This document shows positions 9,478-56,198 of a stretch of 64,000 bases of DNA, piece by piece. The translations under genes were made by a program, and so were the position numbers. The notes under the pieces were generated by a model. That model searched no databases. It saw only the letters and a list, made by a program, of their open reading frames with translations, and was not told where the DNA came from. The stretch lies in assembly GCA_913049555.1 (NCBI GenBank), contig CAJWYM010000001.1:52882-116881 (forward strand), written 5' to 3'. Each line of letters begins with the position of its first letter. Within the stretch, counting starts at the first letter, position 1. Source of the stretch: an uncultured Opitutia bacterium. GTDB lineage: Bacteria > Verrucomicrobiota > Verrucomicrobiia > Opitutales > CAJWYM01.

Positions 9478-10146
9478 CTAAAATCTTTTTCTTAGGTAAA
9501 TGTAACGGGATTCCAAAGTTTCTTTAGTCTTAAAGGTGATTTCTAAGAAATCAGGAATTAAGGATTCGTTGTTTTTTTCTAGAAAATCATCTTCTTTCTC
9601 CCAAGTTTGAAATTCTGGATTGAAATACCAAAGATCTATTTTGTCTACAAAAGGACTGATTTTAGTCTGATACAAGTCTAGAATATTTTCTACATTTTTT
9701 GAGGATGAATGCCACTTAAATTGAAGCCCATTTTGGGTCGATAAATCAAAGAATATTGTGATTGGGGAGTTTAATGGAGTACTATTATCACTAAAGATGG
9801 CAGGAGGAGACTGGATCGATAGCTGGAAGTAAGAATCGTTGAATCCATCTGTCCAATTGGGTTGAACGATTTCAATGTTTTTTGATTTTCCACGAGGTAT
9901 TTCGGTTGTGGGGTTCTTTATTGAACTGGATGCATTGTTAAAAATAAATTGAAGAAAGAAGCAGGTCCCATCCACATGTTGATCAAAAGCATTTTGGGTT
10001 TGGGTTTCAGTCCAAATTTGTTGAAGAGAGAACATAACTTGTAGGGTGGAGACTAAAGTCAAGGCTCCTAGACCTAGAGACAGGATTACTTCAATCAAAG
10101 TGAAAGCGGATTTTTTCTTAGAAATAATTTTGTTGGAGGGATTCAA
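9478..10146 (-). CDS. Minor pseudopilin, GspJ-like
   Basis: Class III prepilin motif AFTLIEVILSL; third gene of a pseudopilin run. Confidence 0.7.
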   Translation of the reverse strand: MNPSNKIISKKKSAFTLIEVILSLGLGALTLVSTLQVMFSLQQIWTETQTQNAFDQHVDGTCFFLQFIFNNASSSIKNPTTEIPRGKSKNIEIVQPNWTDGFNDSYFQLSIQSPPAIFSDNSTPLNSPITIFFDLSTQNGLQFKWHSSSKNVENILDLYQTKISPFVDKIDLWYFNPEFQTWEKEDDFLEKNNESLIPDFLEITFKTKETLESRYIYLRKRF

Positions 10147-22117: not shown

Positions 22118-22421
22118 TCTATCCTATTTGTTTTTTTTGTGAGTCTTAAGAAGAGGGTGGGCAGAACCTGACATTTTTACGGCAGTTATTTTAAAGAGAA
22201 TGTTTTTGTCAATCCAAGAGTGCGAGCTCTTTTTTTACTTGGATCTTAAATTTATCCATTAAAGATTCCATTAAATTTTAATGGGATCTACAATGAGGAA
22301 AGGTACATTAAAACTATTTTAGATCCACAAGATCGTAAAAAATCTTTTTTTGAATTATAAAAGTTTGCGAAATTCATTCTAATGTACTTATTATTAGCAT
22401 CCCCTATTTTAATTGAATATC

Positions 22422-23336
22422 ATGAAAGTTTTTATCCAAAAATTTCCTACCTTTTCTATTCTTTCCCTTATTTTACTATTGTTTCAATTGGTTGGTTGTG
22501 AAGAACAAAAGATTGTTACCTCTAAGAATGTAGCCTTTGGATACAAAGAATTTTGGAAGGATGATAATTTTAACGGCAAACCGGATTTAGGAGAATCTTT
22601 CGAAGATCAGAATAATAATCTGCAGTTCGACCGAAATCACAATTTTCTTTTGTATGAATTGGATCCTAAAACGGGTTTATACTTATTTGACGAAAACAAC
22701 AACCCTGTATTGTTCACAGGAACTGTAAACAAATATTTCATTGGGGGTCAGAAAATGTATGAGCGCAATTATTTAAATGGCCTTTTGCATGGAAAATTGA
22801 AGCGGTGGACGAGTATGGGAATTTTGATTCTTGAATGCTCTTATTTTAATGGGCAATATGATGGTAGATGCATCGAATGGTATCCATTTCCAGTGGATCC
22901 TGAGAAGAAAAAAAGAACTCCGAAACCAGAGGAATTTGATGGAGATGGTTTTAGAGTTCCAAGGGGAATTACAGAGGCTATTACAACGGCTGCTGCAAAA
23001 TTCAAAGATGTGACTCCAACAAAGGAAAGAAAAAAACAAATTAGAGAATGGATTTTAGATCAGTACCAGACCGGTTCTTTCAAAGTCTACAATTGGGGTG
23101 AGTGTGTTTCATTGGCTAGAGCCACTCAAGAAAATCATCCGACCCATGAAAGCAACCTTTGGATGATTCATGCTTTTAAATCCGTTGCAAAAGGAGAATT
23201 TTACAGAAAAAAAGAATCCTATTATAAAATCGGAGAAAAAGTAGACAAATGGGCCGCTTACGATCCAGAGGGGGAGCAAATGTGGGAAGAAAAGTATGAG
23301 GGTGGCCTGCTTGTAGAAAGAACTATGAAGCAATAA
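22422..23336 (+). CDS. Hypothetical lipoprotein with MORN-variant (YwqK-like) repeats
   Basis: ATG at 22422 preferred; lipobox LVGC; repeats such as YLNGLLHG, YFNGQYDG, YKIGEKVD, YEGG. Confidence 0.7.
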   Translation: MKVFIQKFPTFSILSLILLLFQLVGCEEQKIVTSKNVAFGYKEFWKDDNFNGKPDLGESFEDQNNNLQFDRNHNFLLYELDPKTGLYLFDENNNPVLFTGTVNKYFIGGQKMYERNYLNGLLHGKLKRWTSMGILILECSYFNGQYDGRCIEWYPFPVDPEKKKRTPKPEEFDGDGFRVPRGITEAITTAAAKFKDVTPTKERKKQIREWILDQYQTGSFKVYNWGECVSLARATQENHPTHESNLWMIHAFKSVAKGEFYRKKESYYKIGEKVDKWAAYDPEGEQMWEEKYEGGLLVERTMKQ

Positions 23337-23761
23337 AATGGGTGCTAAAAGTGATTTTATCCATTTATCATTAAAACGAGAAATTGTTCAAAAAAATATA
23401 TTACAAAATATAGGTTTTTTTGACTAATTCAGAGTATCAAATTTAGTTATAAAGCGGAACCGTATATCTAGAACATTCCCCATTTTAACAAAAAGATTTT
23501 TTTGAAACACAAACAATCGATAGATTGAACTGTTTGTTGGATTGGATGTGAAAAGCATCACCCAAATAGTAGCCTATATTACGAAGACTCACTTACTAGA
23601 ATCTCTGTGCATTTTAGTTCTAAGAATCATGTGGAGCTTTTATTCATTGAAAACCTTTGCAATAATTTACGAATGAGATTTCTAGGAATAGAGTTTTAGA
23701 GCACTCATTGTGGCCTCATAAATCTAAAATTGTAGATTTTTTTAAAGTCAATTTCGAGGAT

Positions 23762-25384
23762 CTACAAGTTAGAGTCTTCATTTTTTTCGTCGATCAAAGA
23801 CAATGCTTCTTTCAGAGTGTAGCGGATTTGTTCTTTTTTCTCTTCTGATGATATTTTTTCAGTATCCAGATCTATAAAAAAACCGTCATTTTCTTTAACA
23901 AATTCATGCTTGCTTTCAATTTCACCTATAAAGTCATCGACTTGAAAAGTTTTGATTGGATAACCAAATCCTTTTACAGACAGTTCTCCTTTCTCTATGC
24001 ATTTGATTACATCTTTAATCAATACATAAGTGCTGTAGGAAATTTGAATTTCATTCACTTCAGCAGAGCTTTCTAGGCGACTTGCCAAGTTGACCTGATT
24101 GCCGATGATCGTGTAGTCCATGCGCTCATTCGAGCCAAAGTTGCCGACCGTGCAATAACCTGTCGTTATACCAGCCCGTATTTGTAAGGGTCTGACAAAA
24201 CCCTTTCCAGACCACATTTTTCTGAGACGAATCATTTCACGCCTCATTTCGATTGCCATTGATGTGCAAGCAATAGCGTCTTCCTGTTCTCCCTTACTGT
24301 AAGGGTCTCCAAAGAAGATCAATATGGCATCGCCAATAAACTTATCAATAGTGCCTCCATGCTTGAGGGCAATTTTGGACATGGCATTGAGGTAGCTGTT
24401 CAGAACTTCTGTAAGTGATTCCGTTTCCAAAGTATCCGTGAGCTCTGTAAAGCCCTTTATATCTGAGAAAAACACGGTTAGTTTTTTTCGACTAGAGCTA
24501 ATATTTGCTTTGCTTTTACCCAAAAATATAGACTCATAAACTTGGGGTGAAAGATAGCGGGAAAGATCCTTCGAGAGACCTGACAGTTTTTCATTCAAAG
24601 ACTTTGATTCCAGTAATGAGGTTTCTACTTTTTTATTGGCGATTTGCATTTGTTCACTTTTTTCTCTGATTGCGGATAACATATAGTTAAATCCGTCAAA
24701 CAATGATTTGAACTCATCATTACTTTTGAAGTTTGTATGCACTGAATAGCGATCATCTTTGGACACTTGATCCATTGCTTTTTTAAGCTCGAATATAGGC
24801 AGTGTAAATATCCGTTCTAGTTTAAAGGCAAGTATGACGATGATGATAAGAGATAAAGCACTCGCAATCAGTAAGGTGAACACTTGATCGAAAATGGCTT
24901 TTTTGAAACTATTTAAGTTTGAAATTATAATCAAAGACCCTAGGTAGTCACCATCAGAAATTAAAGGAGTATTGACTGCCAATATTCCTAATTCAGAGAC
25001 TTCAAATGCATCCTTTATATTATTATTTTTGTAAAGATATGGAATGACCTCATTTTCAAAAATGGCATCACTTTCTGAGGATTGATAGGAAGCAAATACA
25101 TCTTCAGGGTTCGTATAAATATAGGCAGCTTCAATATCAGAGCTAAATTTTAGGGAATTTAAGGTGGAGAGCGCTGTTCCCTCATCTTCAAATTCAACAG
25201 ATGCGATTAGGTTTTCACCAATGATACTGGTGAACTTGGAGAGTGATTGAAGTCCATCTTGTCGTTCGTTGACGTATGTGAATGCAAATGTTTTTATCAA
25301 CACAATCGTAAGTGCAATCGAAGCACTTAAAAAAAGTAAAAACACTAGTTTTACCCGTATAGACCTGAATTTTTTCGTATTCAT
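23762..25384 (-). CDS. Membrane-bound class III adenylate cyclase (TM-periplasmic sensor-TM-HAMP-cyclase)
   Basis: Two TM helices around a CHASE8-like region; HAMP (PIFELKKAM...DEFKSLFDGFNYM); cyclase motifs FFSDIKGFT, IDKFIGDA, DYTIIGNQVNLASRLE. Confidence 0.92.
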   Translation of the reverse strand: MNTKKFRSIRVKLVFLLFLSASIALTIVLIKTFAFTYVNERQDGLQSLSKFTSIIGENLIASVEFEDEGTALSTLNSLKFSSDIEAAYIYTNPEDVFASYQSSESDAIFENEVIPYLYKNNNIKDAFEVSELGILAVNTPLISDGDYLGSLIIISNLNSFKKAIFDQVFTLLIASALSLIIIVILAFKLERIFTLPIFELKKAMDQVSKDDRYSVHTNFKSNDEFKSLFDGFNYMLSAIREKSEQMQIANKKVETSLLESKSLNEKLSGLSKDLSRYLSPQVYESIFLGKSKANISSSRKKLTVFFSDIKGFTELTDTLETESLTEVLNSYLNAMSKIALKHGGTIDKFIGDAILIFFGDPYSKGEQEDAIACTSMAIEMRREMIRLRKMWSGKGFVRPLQIRAGITTGYCTVGNFGSNERMDYTIIGNQVNLASRLESSAEVNEIQISYSTYVLIKDVIKCIEKGELSVKGFGYPIKTFQVDDFIGEIESKHEFVKENDGFFIDLDTEKISSEEKKEQIRYTLKEALSLIDEKNEDSNL

Positions 25385-25425
25385 CCTATTAAAAAAAAAT
25401 GGATTTCAATGTTATAAAACAAAAT

Positions 25426-27762
25426 TCAGAAACTATAAATTGCTCTAACATAATAATAAGCTCCATTCACTCCATTAGGGGCATAGCGAGAATAAGGGAT
25501 AATACCGTCATGTGCATAAAGGTCTCCAGTAAGGGTGGATGACCATTTGTCAGGGTAACTGTTAAGGAGGTTATTGGCACCGACTGCAATTGTGAATTGT
25601 TGACTCCAATTGTAAGCGAGATCTGTATCTAGTGTCCATTGAGGATCAAAATTGTAGGCTACATTGTCTCTAACTTGTTGGTAGTTGCCATAGCGACTTA
25701 AATTCAAAGTGTAGTCCAATTTTTGGATCTTAAAATGAAATAAGAATTTGGTCGAGGATTGAGGGAGCCCTCGCTCTAAGCGATCGATTTGCTCAAAAGA
25801 GTTTTCGGGGCTAACGGAGGACTGATTGAATCCTACAACTCTGTTTTGGTTGAAATGTTGCCATATCCCAAATTCGATCGATTTTTGATTCTTAAAGTCA
25901 TGTTTATAGTTTAGGCGTAGATCAATCCCATGCGTTTCTGTGTCAACTGCATTGGTTAAAAACCGAACATTAGAGATGTTGTATTTATCCAAGATTGCAA
26001 GCTGTTCAGGGGTAGAACCACTCCGTTCATCTGACAACATGATTCTATCTTTCACATTTACATAGAAATAATCTGTCATAAATGTGAAATTACGGTTGAA
26101 TTCAAAAACACCTCCAAAAGTAAAGTGTGTAGAAGTTTCAGCTTTCAAGGAGGACCCTCCAAAGGCTTGTGAAACTTCGTGATTGGGTCTGAATGTTCCC
26201 TGATCAACAAGATTCCCGCTGGTATCAGCAAAGGAAGATATTTGCGAAAAGTAAGACTGGGACAACGAAGGAGCTCTGAATCCAGTGCTGCTAGATGCTC
26301 TTAACAGAAGCTTTTCCAAGATTCTATAATCTGAGGCAATCTTGAAGTTGGACGTGGAGCCAAAGTCTGTAAATTTCTCATAGCGGTAGGCCGCTTCAAC
26401 GGCAAAGTCTGAGGTAAACTGATAGGTATTATTTGTATACAGGGCATAGCTATTTCGATCTTCATCAACCTCATTCGATGGACGATATCCTGAAAAGCCC
26501 TGAGATCCGTTCCCTGTATAAGAAGCGAAGTCTCCTGCCTCTATTTCATATTGTTCATAGCGGTATTCTAGACCCCCCGCTAAATCGAGTTTTTTAAAGC
26601 CTTTTTTCAAATCAAAGTGGAGGGTGTTTTGGCTGAATGTAAAATTACCATTCTCAAAAGAACTTGGCGAATTGGCACCTAATGAATAGTTCATGCTGTT
26701 ATCTACAGAGAGTTTTATAATATTTTTCCCATAAGTATTACTGATATCCCATTCTACTCCGTTGGAAAGAATACCGGTAACCCCGCCTGTCAAAGAAAAA
26801 TCAAAAATATCAGCCTCTATTAAAGGAAGGAAACCATTAGGAAACAATGGAGAAGAATCAGTGCTTGGTGGCCTGAAAAAAGCACTCGACTGGCTTTGTC
26901 TGAAATTCGATAATCCATGAGAATAAAAAATAAGGTCATTGCCCGTGGGTGCTTCGATATTGAGCATCGTTTCAAGGCTTTTGGTATTTGGCTGACCGTA
27001 ATAAGACTCTACTCGCTTTGGAGTTAAGCGCTTGTCTAATCCTGCTCGTTGAGTCCTTTCCTCTTGTTGAACAGACAACGACAAGTTCGCAAAACCGTCA
27101 TACTTCAATGGGTAATTAGTAAAAATACTGGTTTTAAAGGTTTCACCATCTCCTTTTGAGTGGATCCCCGCATGAGTCTTTACTGTGTGGTCGTCACTGA
27201 TGCCTTTTAGAATAATGTTAATAACCCCAGAGATAGCATCTGAGCCATATTGGGCTGCTGCACCATCGCGTAATATCTCAATTTTTTCTATGGATTCGAG
27301 ATTGATTGTATCCAGATCTACTCCACTGGATCCTCTACCAATTGTGCTATTGGAATGCAAAAGAGAAGATACATGCAATCTTTTACCATTTAATAGGACA
27401 AGAATTTGATCTGGGCTCATTCCGCGAAAGCTAATAACTCGCACATGGTCAGTTCCGTCTGCTATCGCTGGTTCTGGTAGATTGAATCCAGGAACAAAGT
27501 ATCTGATAACTTGGGCTAGGGAAGTGAGGCCCGTTTTCGCAATTTCTTGATGGGTGATGACGTCGACAGGAGTTCTGGAATTCAGAAAGTTTCTGGCTCC
27601 TACGCGGGAACCTACTTCGGCTTTAAGTTCAGATTCCATAGCCATTAAATCTTCGAGGCTCTGGTCAAAAAGATTTTCTGATTCATTAGATGCTGAGAGC
27701 TGAGTTGTTAAACTCAGTAAAATAATTAAAATTAAATTATAAATGTGTTTTGAATCGATCAT
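25426..27762 (-). CDS. TonB-dependent receptor
   Basis: Signal peptide; plug motifs (PVDVIT, FRGMSPDQILVLLNGKR, IEKIEILRDGAAAQYGSDAISGVINIIL); barrel motif GFRAPSL; C-terminal Phe. Confidence 0.95.
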   Translation of the reverse strand: MIDSKHIYNLILIILLSLTTQLSASNESENLFDQSLEDLMAMESELKAEVGSRVGARNFLNSRTPVDVITHQEIAKTGLTSLAQVIRYFVPGFNLPEPAIADGTDHVRVISFRGMSPDQILVLLNGKRLHVSSLLHSNSTIGRGSSGVDLDTINLESIEKIEILRDGAAAQYGSDAISGVINIILKGISDDHTVKTHAGIHSKGDGETFKTSIFTNYPLKYDGFANLSLSVQQEERTQRAGLDKRLTPKRVESYYGQPNTKSLETMLNIEAPTGNDLIFYSHGLSNFRQSQSSAFFRPPSTDSSPLFPNGFLPLIEADIFDFSLTGGVTGILSNGVEWDISNTYGKNIIKLSVDNSMNYSLGANSPSSFENGNFTFSQNTLHFDLKKGFKKLDLAGGLEYRYEQYEIEAGDFASYTGNGSQGFSGYRPSNEVDEDRNSYALYTNNTYQFTSDFAVEAAYRYEKFTDFGSTSNFKIASDYRILEKLLLRASSSTGFRAPSLSQSYFSQISSFADTSGNLVDQGTFRPNHEVSQAFGGSSLKAETSTHFTFGGVFEFNRNFTFMTDYFYVNVKDRIMLSDERSGSTPEQLAILDKYNISNVRFLTNAVDTETHGIDLRLNYKHDFKNQKSIEFGIWQHFNQNRVVGFNQSSVSPENSFEQIDRLERGLPQSSTKFLFHFKIQKLDYTLNLSRYGNYQQVRDNVAYNFDPQWTLDTDLAYNWSQQFTIAVGANNLLNSYPDKWSSTLTGDLYAHDGIIPYSRYAPNGVNGAYYYVRAIYSF

Positions 27763-27781
27763 GTCTTAGCCTCTACTTGGT

Positions 27782-28306
27782 TCATTCTCCATTTTCGGGT
27801 CTCAAAACTTCAGCAATTCTTAAAAGTGAAGATTTAATCTCAAATTCTTGCTTGTTGGTTCTCTCAAGATTTATTTTTAAGCGTGGTTTTTGAGAAGTGA
27901 AATAAACCTGTATCGCACCCCCTTTTTCAGCAAAAGCTCTTGCATTGCTGATCAGCAATATTTTCTTATTCACAGTATAGTCAATGATTTTTTTGAGATC
28001 ATTGGAAGGAACTTTAGGAACAAAAAAAATGCGAGGATTCCCCAGATCTTCAATTTTTTCAATGTAAGTGATCGCTACTTTTTGATTCTTGATTTTTCGG
28101 TTGGCATAAGTTTTTTCAAAAAGATCCCCAAAAGGATTTTTCAATACAGTAATTTGAAAATGCTTTTCGCTCTTTTCTGGCCATTCAATGAATTTTGCTA
28201 TTTTACCAACTAGAGCCACTGTCAACTCATCTTCAGATTTGTATGCATTCAATGTAAGGGTTATAATTATACATAAAAAAACATAGAAAATGTAATTGTA
28301 TTTCAT
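27782..28306 (-). CDS. YfiR-family (DUF4154) periplasmic protein
   Basis: Signal peptide; E..L.VAL..KIAKFIEWP, FAEKGGAI and RLKINL...IKSSLLRIA match YfiR/HmsC-family patterns. Confidence 0.85.
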   Translation of the reverse strand: MKYNYIFYVFLCIIITLTLNAYKSEDELTVALVGKIAKFIEWPEKSEKHFQITVLKNPFGDLFEKTYANRKIKNQKVAITYIEKIEDLGNPRIFFVPKVPSNDLKKIIDYTVNKKILLISNARAFAEKGGAIQVYFTSQKPRLKINLERTNKQEFEIKSSLLRIAEVLRPENGE

Positions 28307-29023
28307 TAGAATTTCTTCAACGGATCGTTAAGTTTTTAAAATCTCATCAATTACCAGTAACAACTAGCAAGAGTGTGTATTCTAAACTTAAATTCATTTG
28401 CTTGAATTGGGTAAAAAGCACGTTTTAATGGGTGTAATTTATTCTTATAGAATAATATAAAAAAAGCCAGTATTTTTTAGTCCTATTTTAAAATAGGGAA
28501 GTTCACTCCTTTTTTTAATATTTCCAAAGGACTCAGGTTCTCCATTCCCAATCTTTATATAAAACTTATAATTTTGAAGGTTTTCTTATCAGCAGTAGTG
28601 ATTTCTCACAATAAGTTTTTATAAAGTCTTTTTATTTTAAATGAATACAGCAGTCTTAGTGATCGATTCTGTCGACTTCATCATGACTAATTGGACTTTA
28701 GATTTTACCAAAACGACAGAACCCTGAATCCTCCAAAAGGATGCAATAAAAAATAAGTTTTGAGCAAAAGATATTGAAGCGAAAAGAGTGATTAAATCCT
28801 GAAATAGAACTTTTGGTTCCGTGAAGATTTTCATAAATCATTGCAGTCGAATCCGTGAAGCTTGAGGTCAAAGTTTTCATGAGGGATCTGGGTTTATCAA
28901 ATTGCATGCCATTTGAGCGTATAAAGTAAACCCCACGCTCTTTTAGTTTTTTAAGACTTAAATTTTAGTTTCTACTTTAGATTGCATTTACAATTTCTAA
29001 AATCATTTGTAGATTCTTTCCCC

Positions 29024-55526: not shown

Positions 55527-56198
55527 CTAATTTTTTAACTTATAAAGAACTGGCACGTTGAACATTGTTTTTACTGTTTTTCCAGCTTTTTTAGGTGGAG
55601 TATATATAGAAGACTCTGCCCATTTTTTGGCGGCATCCACAAAACGCTTGTCTGAAAATTCTAAAACATCGATCACAGTCAATTTCCCTTTTTTATCTAT
55701 CTCCACTTTGAGAAGAACTCTTGCCTCTATCTTTTGTCTTTTTAGTTTTCGAGGATAGTTATTAGGTCCTTGCTTGATCAGTCTAGGGTTTTCATCGAGT
55801 TGATGGAGTTCAAAAGTGAAATCTTCAAGATTGGGGTCTCTAAGTTTGAATTTATTGATTCCAAGATCGCTGGATTCAAAACTTGGATTTACGTCTAGTT
55901 TTACATGAACCGTATCTAACTCGAAACTTGGAACATTGGTAGTAACAGGAGGCATTTTTAGAAGAATTGCAGGCAATTCCTCTAAAGGCTTTATTTGAAT
56001 GGGTTTTGTCGGGATTTCTTCAAGGAATTCAACGGGACGGACGGTCAATGTTTCTGGTTTCCGCTTTAATTCCATAACAATAGGAAAAGTAATTAAAAGT
56101 ACCGCACTGGTTAAAAGGCCAAAAAAAATCGAGCTTAAAGAGGTCTTTCTTTGCTTACTGTCCAAATGAAACTTGTATTTGTCTTTTCCAGATTTCAA
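55527..56198 (-). CDS. Energy transducer TonB-family protein
   Basis: N-terminal TM helix, Pro-containing linker, C-domain YPRKLKRQKIEARV...IDKKG...PPKKAGKTV. Confidence 0.85.
   Translation of the reverse strand: MKSGKDKYKFHLDSKQRKTSLSSIFFGLLTSAVLLITFPIVMELKRKPETLTVRPVEFLEEIPTKPIQIKPLEELPAILLKMPPVTTNVPSFELDTVHVKLDVNPSFESSDLGINKFKLRDPNLEDFTFELHQLDENPRLIKQGPNNYPRKLKRQKIEARVLLKVEIDKKGKLTVIDVLEFSDKRFVDAAKKWAESSIYTPPKKAGKTVKTMFNVPVLYKLKN

Follow-up and report, generated by a model that had tools for sequence, protein, structure and literature searches.

A YfiR-like protein, a TonB-dependent receptor and a CHASE8-HAMP adenylate cyclase encoded side by side: a candidate route from surface receptor to cAMP in an uncultured Opitutia bacterium

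Can the state of an outer-membrane receptor be read out inside the cell without a sigma/anti-sigma pair? For TonB-dependent receptors, nearly all cell-surface signalling known to us runs through such pairs. The question is raised by three genes in a stretch of 64,000 nucleotides (nt) from an uncultured Opitutia bacterium (GenBank assembly GCA_913049555.1, contig CAJWYM010000001.1, positions 52,882 to 116,881), hereafter the window, in whose numbering positions are given. On the minus strand a gene for a YfiR-like DUF4154 protein is followed by those for a TonB-dependent receptor and for a membrane protein with a CHASE8 sensor, a HAMP domain and a class III cyclase. The intergenic gaps are 19 nt (YfiR-like/receptor) and 41 nt (receptor/cyclase), and the trio is set apart by non-coding flanks of 675 nt upstream (28307-28981) and 425 nt downstream (23337-23761). 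A first-pass annotation, made from the letters alone, had described three co-oriented genes with these gaps and long flanks and had named their products, and both the open reading frames (ORFs) and spacers and the Pfam domains bore it out. It had further suggested that the receptor, on binding its ligand, captures YfiR and releases the cyclase, with cyclic AMP (cAMP) rather than cyclic di-GMP (c-di-GMP) as the output. We lean towards the reading that the trio would be a three-part envelope-spanning sensor which leads from a surface receptor to cAMP through a relay resembling that of YfiBNR. The features concerned are:

28306..27782, minus strand: YfiR-like periplasmic protein (DUF4154), P0001, 174 amino acids (aa); Pfam PF13689, 102.5 bits against a cut-off of 24.9
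27762..25426, minus strand: TonB-dependent receptor, P0002, 778 aa; Pfam Plug and TonB_dep_Rec barrel
27625..27675, minus strand: receptor N-terminal segment, residues 30-46 (N-L-F-D-Q-S-L-E-D-L-M-A-M-E-S-E-L); conserved, and the predicted docking site of the YfiR-like protein
27223..27576, minus strand: receptor Plug domain, residues 63-180; PF07715, 80.5 bits
25384..23762, minus strand: membrane sensor-cyclase, P0003, 540 aa; first transmembrane segment, periplasmic CHASE8, second transmembrane segment, HAMP, class III cyclase and a 55-aa tail (Pfam)
24926..25252, minus strand: CHASE8 periplasmic sensor domain (YfiN-type), residues 45-153; PF17152, 44 bits, cut-off 27
24662..24814, minus strand: HAMP domain, residues 191-241; PF00672, 20.8 bits, under the cut-off of 25
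23939..24490, minus strand: class III (CyaB-like) adenylate cyclase catalytic domain, residues 299-482; PF00211, 94.8 bits

Is such a trio a recurring unit? The cassette is catalogued in NCBIfam through a set of linked models, NF053590 ('TOL_0244 family TonB-dependent receptor'), NF053591 ('TOL_0243 family YfiR-like periplasmic protein') and NF053592 ('sensor histidine kinase, YfiR-like protein-associated'), and this kind of system is therefore not new, only experimentally unstudied. Of the 401 genomes sampled in the phylum, 52 have DUF4154, with 93 matches in all. We classified the neighbours at the 91 loci outside the window's genome by our own ORF calls and hidden Markov models (HMMs); as L175 gave no DUF4154 ORF, 90 loci were counted. 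Same-strand trios were present at 54/90, in the order receptor, DUF4154, CHASE8 sensor at 52/90 and DUF4154, CHASE8, receptor at 2/90. A receptor and DUF4154 followed by a gene unlabelled by our probes stood at 13/90, a DUF4154-CHASE8 pair with no adjacent same-strand receptor at 19/90, DUF4154 fused to a kinase at 3/90 and another arrangement at 1/90; the window's order of YfiR, receptor and sensor was found at 0/90 of these phylum loci. Since 19 of the 90 have no receptor adjacent, the YfiR-CHASE8 sensor pair can stand without one. The genome of the window itself (3.1 Mb, 102 contigs) has exactly two DUF4154 and two CHASE8 matches, each pair beside a TonB-dependent receptor. Its second cassette, C28:15411-20496 (L003:4412-9497), encodes a receptor (709 aa), a DUF4154 protein (182 aa) and a CHASE8-HAMP-HisKA-HATPase-REC-Hpt protein (796 aa); the match of the C28 receptor to NF053590 is full-length, with 438.8 bits, and the N-terminal segment of this receptor reads M-S-M-E-D-I-L-N-Q-E-V-S-S-I-S-K. 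In some survey loci (L192, L193, L194, L186) we observed DUF4154 fused to the N-terminus of large histidine kinases of 627-1247 aa.

The window's own order was recovered from metagenomes. The N-terminal ~250-260 residues of P0003 have relatives at 33-44% identity with other outputs, namely a CHASE8-Hpt-HATPase protein, CHASE8-SpoIIE phosphatases and hybrid kinases. When metagenomes were scanned with the first 260 residues of P0003 alone, no loci were obtained; an N-terminal alignment of P0003 and these relatives gave 21. In 14 of the 21 the genes for a DUF4154 protein (~170 aa), a receptor (753-787 aa) and a CHASE8 sensor follow each other as in the window, and because these 14 loci repeat the same order, the arrangement of the trio is not due to chance. 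Four more, at contig ends, show the receptor followed by the sensor, and the remaining three are one locus in canonical order, one cyclase without CHASE8 and one lone sensor on a short contig. The first-pass annotation had staked its proposal on the trio being conserved together, which is what the 54/90 phylum loci and the 14 metagenome loci display. Scans for promoter and terminator consensus at the trio did no better than on shuffled sequence, and the operon structure is therefore argued from spacing and conservation only. Outputs within this subfamily are SpoIIE (10 loci) and an Hpt-HATPase (CheA-like) kinase of ~720 aa (6 loci), which at L233 is followed by CheX and a receiver (REC) according to Pfam. 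The subfamily receptors are 49-55% identical to that of the window and 13-18% identical to canonical receptors, and they match NF053590 over the plug only; the relatives L232 and L233 likewise stay under the NCBIfam cut-offs. The best NCBIfam matches of P0002 lie in the FepA family, again over the plug only, and the nearest solved relatives of the receptor profile are the catecholate receptors CirA (2.4e-76), PfeA and PirA. Judged by sequence comparison, the receptor is of a FepA/CirA-like lineage distinct from the TOL_0244 type, and the trio belongs to a distinct subfamily with the gene order YfiR, receptor, sensor, its own output module having been swapped for a CyaB-type adenylate cyclase. 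With three adjacent same-strand genes and an S-L-E-x-L-M motif on the barrel, the marks of the broad barrel/YfiR-like/CHASE8 superfamily, we are confident in assigning the window trio to this superfamily as a member with cAMP output. Where the output in the subfamily is a phosphatase, the YfiR-like gene is preceded by one for a small, soluble histidine kinase of 308-315 aa (L232:4155-5102; L243:968-1894); L232 also has a single-domain receiver (9550-9939) after its phosphatase, which resembles SiaA with 246 bits, under the cut-off.

What, then, would connect the receptor with the YfiR-like protein? P0002 has a signal peptide at its N-terminus, the Plug and a barrel (residues 302-732; PF00593, 102.5 bits). 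By Pfam it has no STN signalling domain, only a segment of ~17 residues, in which the stretch D-Q-S-L-E-D-L-M-A-M-E that the first-pass annotation had pointed out ahead of the plug was located at residues 33-43, between signal peptide and Plug. In 13 aligned receptors of the subfamily S-L-E-D-L-M-x-M-E-S-E-L-K-A-D-V-G-S-R-S-G-A is nearly invariant, and the window copy fits; the canonical family has L-S-L-E-E-L-M-x-I-E-V-T-S-V-S-K-K as its counterpart. Residues 47-56 of P0002 read K-A-E-V-G-S-R-V-G-A, at a place taken in other receptors by E-V-T-S-V-S-K or L-E-E-V-V-V-T-G. In an alignment of 75 receptors the core of the motif is conserved at 77% (S35), 73% (L36), 77% (E37) and 85% (L39). A strict regular expression for the motif matched only 34/67 cassette receptors and was judged too narrow, because the column statistics place the conservation of the core at 73-85%. 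None of the solved receptors matches the receptor family profile before position 46, that is, over the motif. In the window's genome the motif is present on 2/2 cassette receptors and on 0/5 others, those five having classical TonB boxes of the L-E-E-V-V-V-T-G type. Similarly, among 30 Plug loci in three complete genomes, the three receptors adjacent to cassettes are of the cassette type (HMM scores 531-682), and 26 of the 27 non-adjacent ones score below 125 and lack the motif. The other one, L210 (G096:C1:~285630; score 614), is a cassette-type receptor with the motif and without a YfiR-like neighbour; the same genome has a receptor-less DUF4154-CHASE8 pair, L151 (G096:C1:~2773658), and these parts may cooperate from separate loci.

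Furthermore, the motif was found on barrels of a different family. At 7 of the 19 receptor-less cassettes (L179, L180, L182, L185, L187, L188, L189) a gene of 371-399 aa takes the place of the receptor gene, and all seven products belong to Phenol_MetA_deg (PF13557), six by Pfam and the seventh by a genome match, a family which we take to consist of outer-membrane barrels. Directly after the signal peptide all seven have P-P-V-D-L-A-x-x-S-L-G-D-L-L-N-A-K-I-I, with the motif in the form S-L-x-D-L-L, and in five genomes the motif occurs on 5/5 Phenol_MetA_deg members adjacent to cassettes and on 0/8 non-adjacent ones. Because these unrelated MetA-like barrels carry the motif only when adjacent, it tracks the adjacency of a YfiR-like gene and not the barrel family. 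With the exception of the orphan L210, the S-L-E-D/E-L-M segment appears to be confined to barrels encoded beside YfiR-like genes. The alignments and the non-cassette controls thus uphold the segment as a conserved, cassette-specific element.

Does the YfiR-like protein bind there? P0001 has a signal peptide of about residues 1-21. It reaches 21.8 bits with the NCBIfam equivalog sequest_YfiR (cut-off 85), and the profile of its family matches structures of YfiR (4zhu, E 4.4e-14). For a complex prediction we paired residues 25-778 of the receptor with residues 22-174 of the YfiR-like protein, both being the mature forms, with alignments of 75 and 100 sequences, respectively. The scores were 0.71, 0.73 and 0.71, and the best of three controls was 0.00; the mark used was reached by 58/80 solved complexes and 2/110 mismatched pairs, counts that hold only roughly for alignments built by ourselves. 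The runs share at least 94% of their contacts, with a predicted local distance difference test (pLDDT) value of at least 85 for the partner. On the receptor the predicted interface consists of motif residues 30-32, 34-37 and 39-46 together with periplasmic plug and barrel residues 58, 70-72, 159, 187-189, 220-223, 272-276 and 331-335; on the YfiR-like protein it consists of residues 22-39 (helix alpha-1 by alignment), 65-70, 100-102, 123-128, 135-143, 161 and 164. We know of no solved receptor-YfiR complex, and it is therefore unlikely that the prediction passed from the memory of the model. The YfiR-like protein is thus predicted to dock on the periplasmic face of the receptor, chiefly through the N-terminal segment, which the first-pass annotation had cast in just this part. 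According to PMC4655355, helix alpha-1 of YfiR forms part of a conserved surface to which YfiB binds and YfiN is predicted to bind, a strand of YfiB pairs with one of YfiR, the YfiR fold resembles the N-domain of type I periplasmic binding proteins, and cysteine pairs have roles in redox sensitivity. The single Cys of P0001, residue 12, lies in the signal peptide; the mature protein, being free of Cys, would therefore have no redox switch like that of YfiR.

At the other end of the trio the question is what the sensor drives. The N-terminal region of P0003 matches DgcN/YfiN with 55.6 bits in NCBIfam, and its HAMP is conserved in alignment with sensors of other outputs. No GGDEF match was found in P0003 by Pfam. 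The catalytic domain matches CyaB of P. aeruginosa (PDB 3r5g) over residues 295-484 at E 1.3e-78 with 268 bits, and the stretches F-F-S-D-I-x-G-F-T, T-I-D-K-F-x-G-D and V-N-L-A-S-R-L-E-S are identical to those of CyaB; presumably these hold the metal-binding, substrate and transition-state residues. The output of the trio is thus very probably cAMP, as the first-pass annotation had it, and not c-di-GMP. That the module is real and makes another cyclic nucleotide, or that its catalytic domain is inactive or regulatory, is conceivable inasmuch as the substrate choice of class III enzymes hangs on few residues, which we judged by identity to CyaB in one alignment; with 268 bits over 190 residues and the metal, substrate and transition-state stretches all identical, we give this very little weight.

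Searching for orthologues with the whole cyclase was uninformative on the cassette. It gave 80 genome loci, mostly of Marinobacter, Pseudomonas and Oleiphilaceae, which match the catalytic domain only (51-57% identity over ~264-517); a YfiR-like or cassette-receptor neighbour was found at 0/80 of them, and in 40 relatives of the genome there was no full-length orthologue of P0003, catalytic-domain matches only. The catalytic domain is thus one that CyaB-like enzymes have too. Of the 99,791 matching proteins in a representative library, the best 150 include only one with CHASE8, P0004 (98-99% identical to P0003); in the others the HAMP-cyclase is joined to sCache, CHASE5 or unrecognised sensors, and P0048, weakly matched by a CHASE8 model of our own, is sCache_4 according to Pfam. 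A profile of 56 CHASE8-HAMP modules, run against longer proteins in a word-index search, gave 78 matches, 21 of them with CHASE8, and a cyclase was present only in P0003 and P0004. A HAMP-CyaB-like cyclase unit has thus been joined to a cassette-type CHASE8 sensor, in what looks to be a rare event; since the searches comprised a best-150 list and a word index, they support 'rare' and not 'unique'. It may be noted that the stretch of the catalytic domain (23933-24502) has a G+C content of 0.43 (24000-24499) against ~0.34 for the sensor half, and that gammaproteobacterial CyaB is a far closer relative of the domain than are the other cyclases of the genome (~32-33% identity). From this step in G+C and the closeness to CyaB, the HAMP-cyclase unit may have been acquired.

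Is the receptor a working part of this sensor, or a mere companion in expression? Receptors adjoining two-component sensors that regulate them are well known, and P0002 could be an ordinary nutrient transporter that shares a transcript with the sensor pair or is under its control, much like PfeA beside PfeS/PfeR, without a role in its input; the 19/90 YfiR-CHASE8 pairs with no adjacent receptor fit such an arrangement. The outputs of the cassettes do not. By our probes 61 sensors were histidine or hybrid kinases and 13 were unlabelled, and Pfam, applied to ten of these 13, found nine kinases of other types and one CHASE8-HAMP chemoreceptor. One sensor module is thus joined to a cyclase, a PP2C phosphatase, a CheA-like kinase, histidine kinases or a chemoreceptor, a variety of outputs that the first-pass annotation had thought worth looking for in the neighbourhoods, and a chemoreceptor, a CheA-like kinase, a PP2C phosphatase or a cyclase does not directly regulate the neighbouring gene. 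Moreover, the members of the trio diverge together. Across 65 complete trios the Spearman correlations were 0.62 (YfiR-like/receptor), 0.77 (YfiR-like/sensor module) and 0.63 (receptor/sensor module), values reached in 0/300 permutations, and in genomes with several cassettes the nearest paralogue by YfiR was also the nearest by receptor in 222/353 cases and by sensor in 235/353, with ~149 expected by chance; as relatives are not independent, these figures are descriptive. As far as sequence distances can tell, they show the three genes to be inherited and to diverge as units. Together with the specificity of the motif for barrels beside YfiR-like genes and the passing of the complex prediction, this leaves co-expression alone a very improbable account of the receptor.

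How would the parts then work together? On the reading that we favour, the YfiR-like protein would dock on the receptor, the N-terminal segment packing on its helix alpha-1 and along residues 135-141, and the same protein would bind CHASE8 and set the activity of the cyclase, as is suggested by the YfiR-YfiN pair. Binding of the YfiR-like protein to the CHASE8 domain of the window, and inhibition by it, are proposed by that analogy. Depending on its state, such as a bound ligand or an engaged TonB, the receptor would hold more or less of the YfiR-like protein and thereby change the synthesis of cAMP, which would act through some of the seven cNMP-binding-domain (cNMP_binding) matches of the genome; the genome also has four class III cyclase and four TonB C-terminal domain (TonB_C) matches. 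We regard it as fairly probable that the segment is where the YfiR-like protein docks and that this protein passes on the receptor's state. The exact polarity of the first-pass annotation is another matter. By analogy with the repression of YfiN by YfiR, the cyclase would be turned on when the receptor captures the YfiR-like protein, and we think this direction rather doubtful.

The same components could also serve a relay of the ligand itself. In that case the receptor would only import a scarce molecule, which the YfiR-like protein, with its fold like half of a periplasmic binding protein, or CHASE8 would bind in the periplasm, in the manner of sensors that depend on binding proteins, and the segment would serve TonB coupling or park YfiR near the pore. 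The receptor has a complete plug and barrel and stands nearest to the true transporters CirA (2.4e-76), PfeA and PirA, TonB is present in the genome, and docking at the exit of the pore would suit such a relay as well; PMC4655355, moreover, likens the fold of YfiR to the N-domain of type I binding proteins. Yet the segment is absent from ordinary receptors with classical TonB boxes, is present on MetA-like barrels, for which no use of TonB is known, and is the main contact of the predicted complex, and we consider a relay of the ligand improbable, though it deserves more weight than co-expression alone.

Several observations weigh against a docking relay gated by the receptor. All three window proteins score under the NCBIfam cut-offs (68.4 bits against 125 for the YfiR-like protein with NF053591, 45.1 against 645 for the receptor with NF053590, and 117.5 against 194 for the sensor's N-terminal region with NF053592, 'HK near YfiR-like'), and at 19/90 loci the DUF4154-CHASE8 pair has no adjacent same-strand receptor. 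The predicted interface is not more conserved overall than the rest, the mean column entropies (interface against rest) being 2.53 and 2.37 for YfiR and 2.20 and 2.34 for the receptor, and the complex score is the confidence of a model and not a measurement, obtained with alignments that we built from neighbouring genes. As the motif-bearing MetA-like barrels are, as far as known, not TonB-dependent, gating by TonB cannot be general. Lastly, no experimental study of any cassette member was found in a literature search outside the subscription journals. The remark of the first-pass annotation that it knew of no characterised example agrees with this, but the cassette itself had already been catalogued as NF053590, NF053591 and NF053592. 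What is new here is a different receptor lineage, gene order and cyclase output within a cassette that is catalogued and experimentally unstudied.

The nearest known relatives of the proposed relay are YfiBNR (TpbB/DgcN; P. aeruginosa, E. coli) and HmsCDE (Yersinia), which likewise combine a periplasmic DUF4154 protein, a CHASE8-HAMP sensor and an outer-membrane partner, and in the proposed logic that partner would compete for YfiR in the same manner. The predicted contact uses helix alpha-1 of the YfiR-like protein, which in YfiR is part of the conserved surface for YfiB and, by prediction, for YfiN (PMC4655355). The partner encoded in the window, however, is a 22-strand TonB-dependent receptor and not an OmpA-like lipoprotein as YfiB/HmsE, the output is a class III adenylate cyclase and not GGDEF, and the mature YfiR-like protein lacks the cysteine pairs of YfiR. 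The receptor stands where YfiB would be, as had been said of it earlier: the third gene of the trio encodes a TonB-dependent receptor, and no YfiB-like gene was found among the flanking genes. With the NCBIfam TOL_0243/TOL_0244/kinase cassette, the majority pattern of the phylum survey and the type of the C28 cassette, the trio shares three kinds of protein side by side; unlike it, the window has YfiR, receptor and cyclase in place of receptor, YfiR-like protein and histidine kinase, its proteins stay under the cut-offs, and its receptor matches NF053590 over the plug only. As in FecA-FecR-FecI signalling, a partner in the periplasm would be touched by an N-terminal extension of the receptor and so learn whether the ligand is bound, but the window receptor lacks an STN domain, Pfam found no sigma or anti-sigma factor in the cassette or its neighbours, the relay would be soluble and the output a second messenger. 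CyaB (PDB 3r5g) is alike in the catalytic domain only, the window protein having a CHASE8-HAMP input.

The cassette family is common in the phylum (DUF4154 in 52 of the 401 genomes) and has curated database models, and the 17-residue segment, specific to barrels beside YfiR-like genes and predicted to hold the YfiR-like protein, offers a testable handle on it. Among its members the one with the cyclase lends itself best to testing, as its cAMP output could be read in cyaA-minus E. coli. The cassette is also a clear-cut example of modular rewiring, in that the one sensor module drives cAMP in one place and histidine kinases, chemotaxis, a CheA-like kinase or a PP2C phosphatase in others. A wider proposal, which we put forward tentatively and with slightly less conviction than docking at this receptor, is that S-L-E-D/E-L-M would be a portable YfiR docking peptide on at least three kinds of barrel (TOL_0244-type, FepA-like and MetA-like) and the basis of a general surface signalling free of sigma/anti-sigma pairs. 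The state of the barrel would determine the amount of YfiR-like protein left free for CHASE8, the outputs would be freely exchanged, and here cAMP would be a direct readout of whether a surface receptor is occupied.

As regards the surroundings, the trio is flanked on one side by pheS, pheT, a sulfatase gene and a 307-aa ORF and on the other by genes for a DUF481 protein and an ABC transporter, and these neighbours gave no hint of the ligand or signal. The 307-aa ORF (22413-23336, plus strand) lies directly downstream of the trio on the opposite strand, and at E 1e-4 Pfam assigns it to no family. Also within the window, at 55527-56198 (minus strand; genome C1:108417-108644) and ~27 kb from the trio, is a match to the TonB C-terminal domain.

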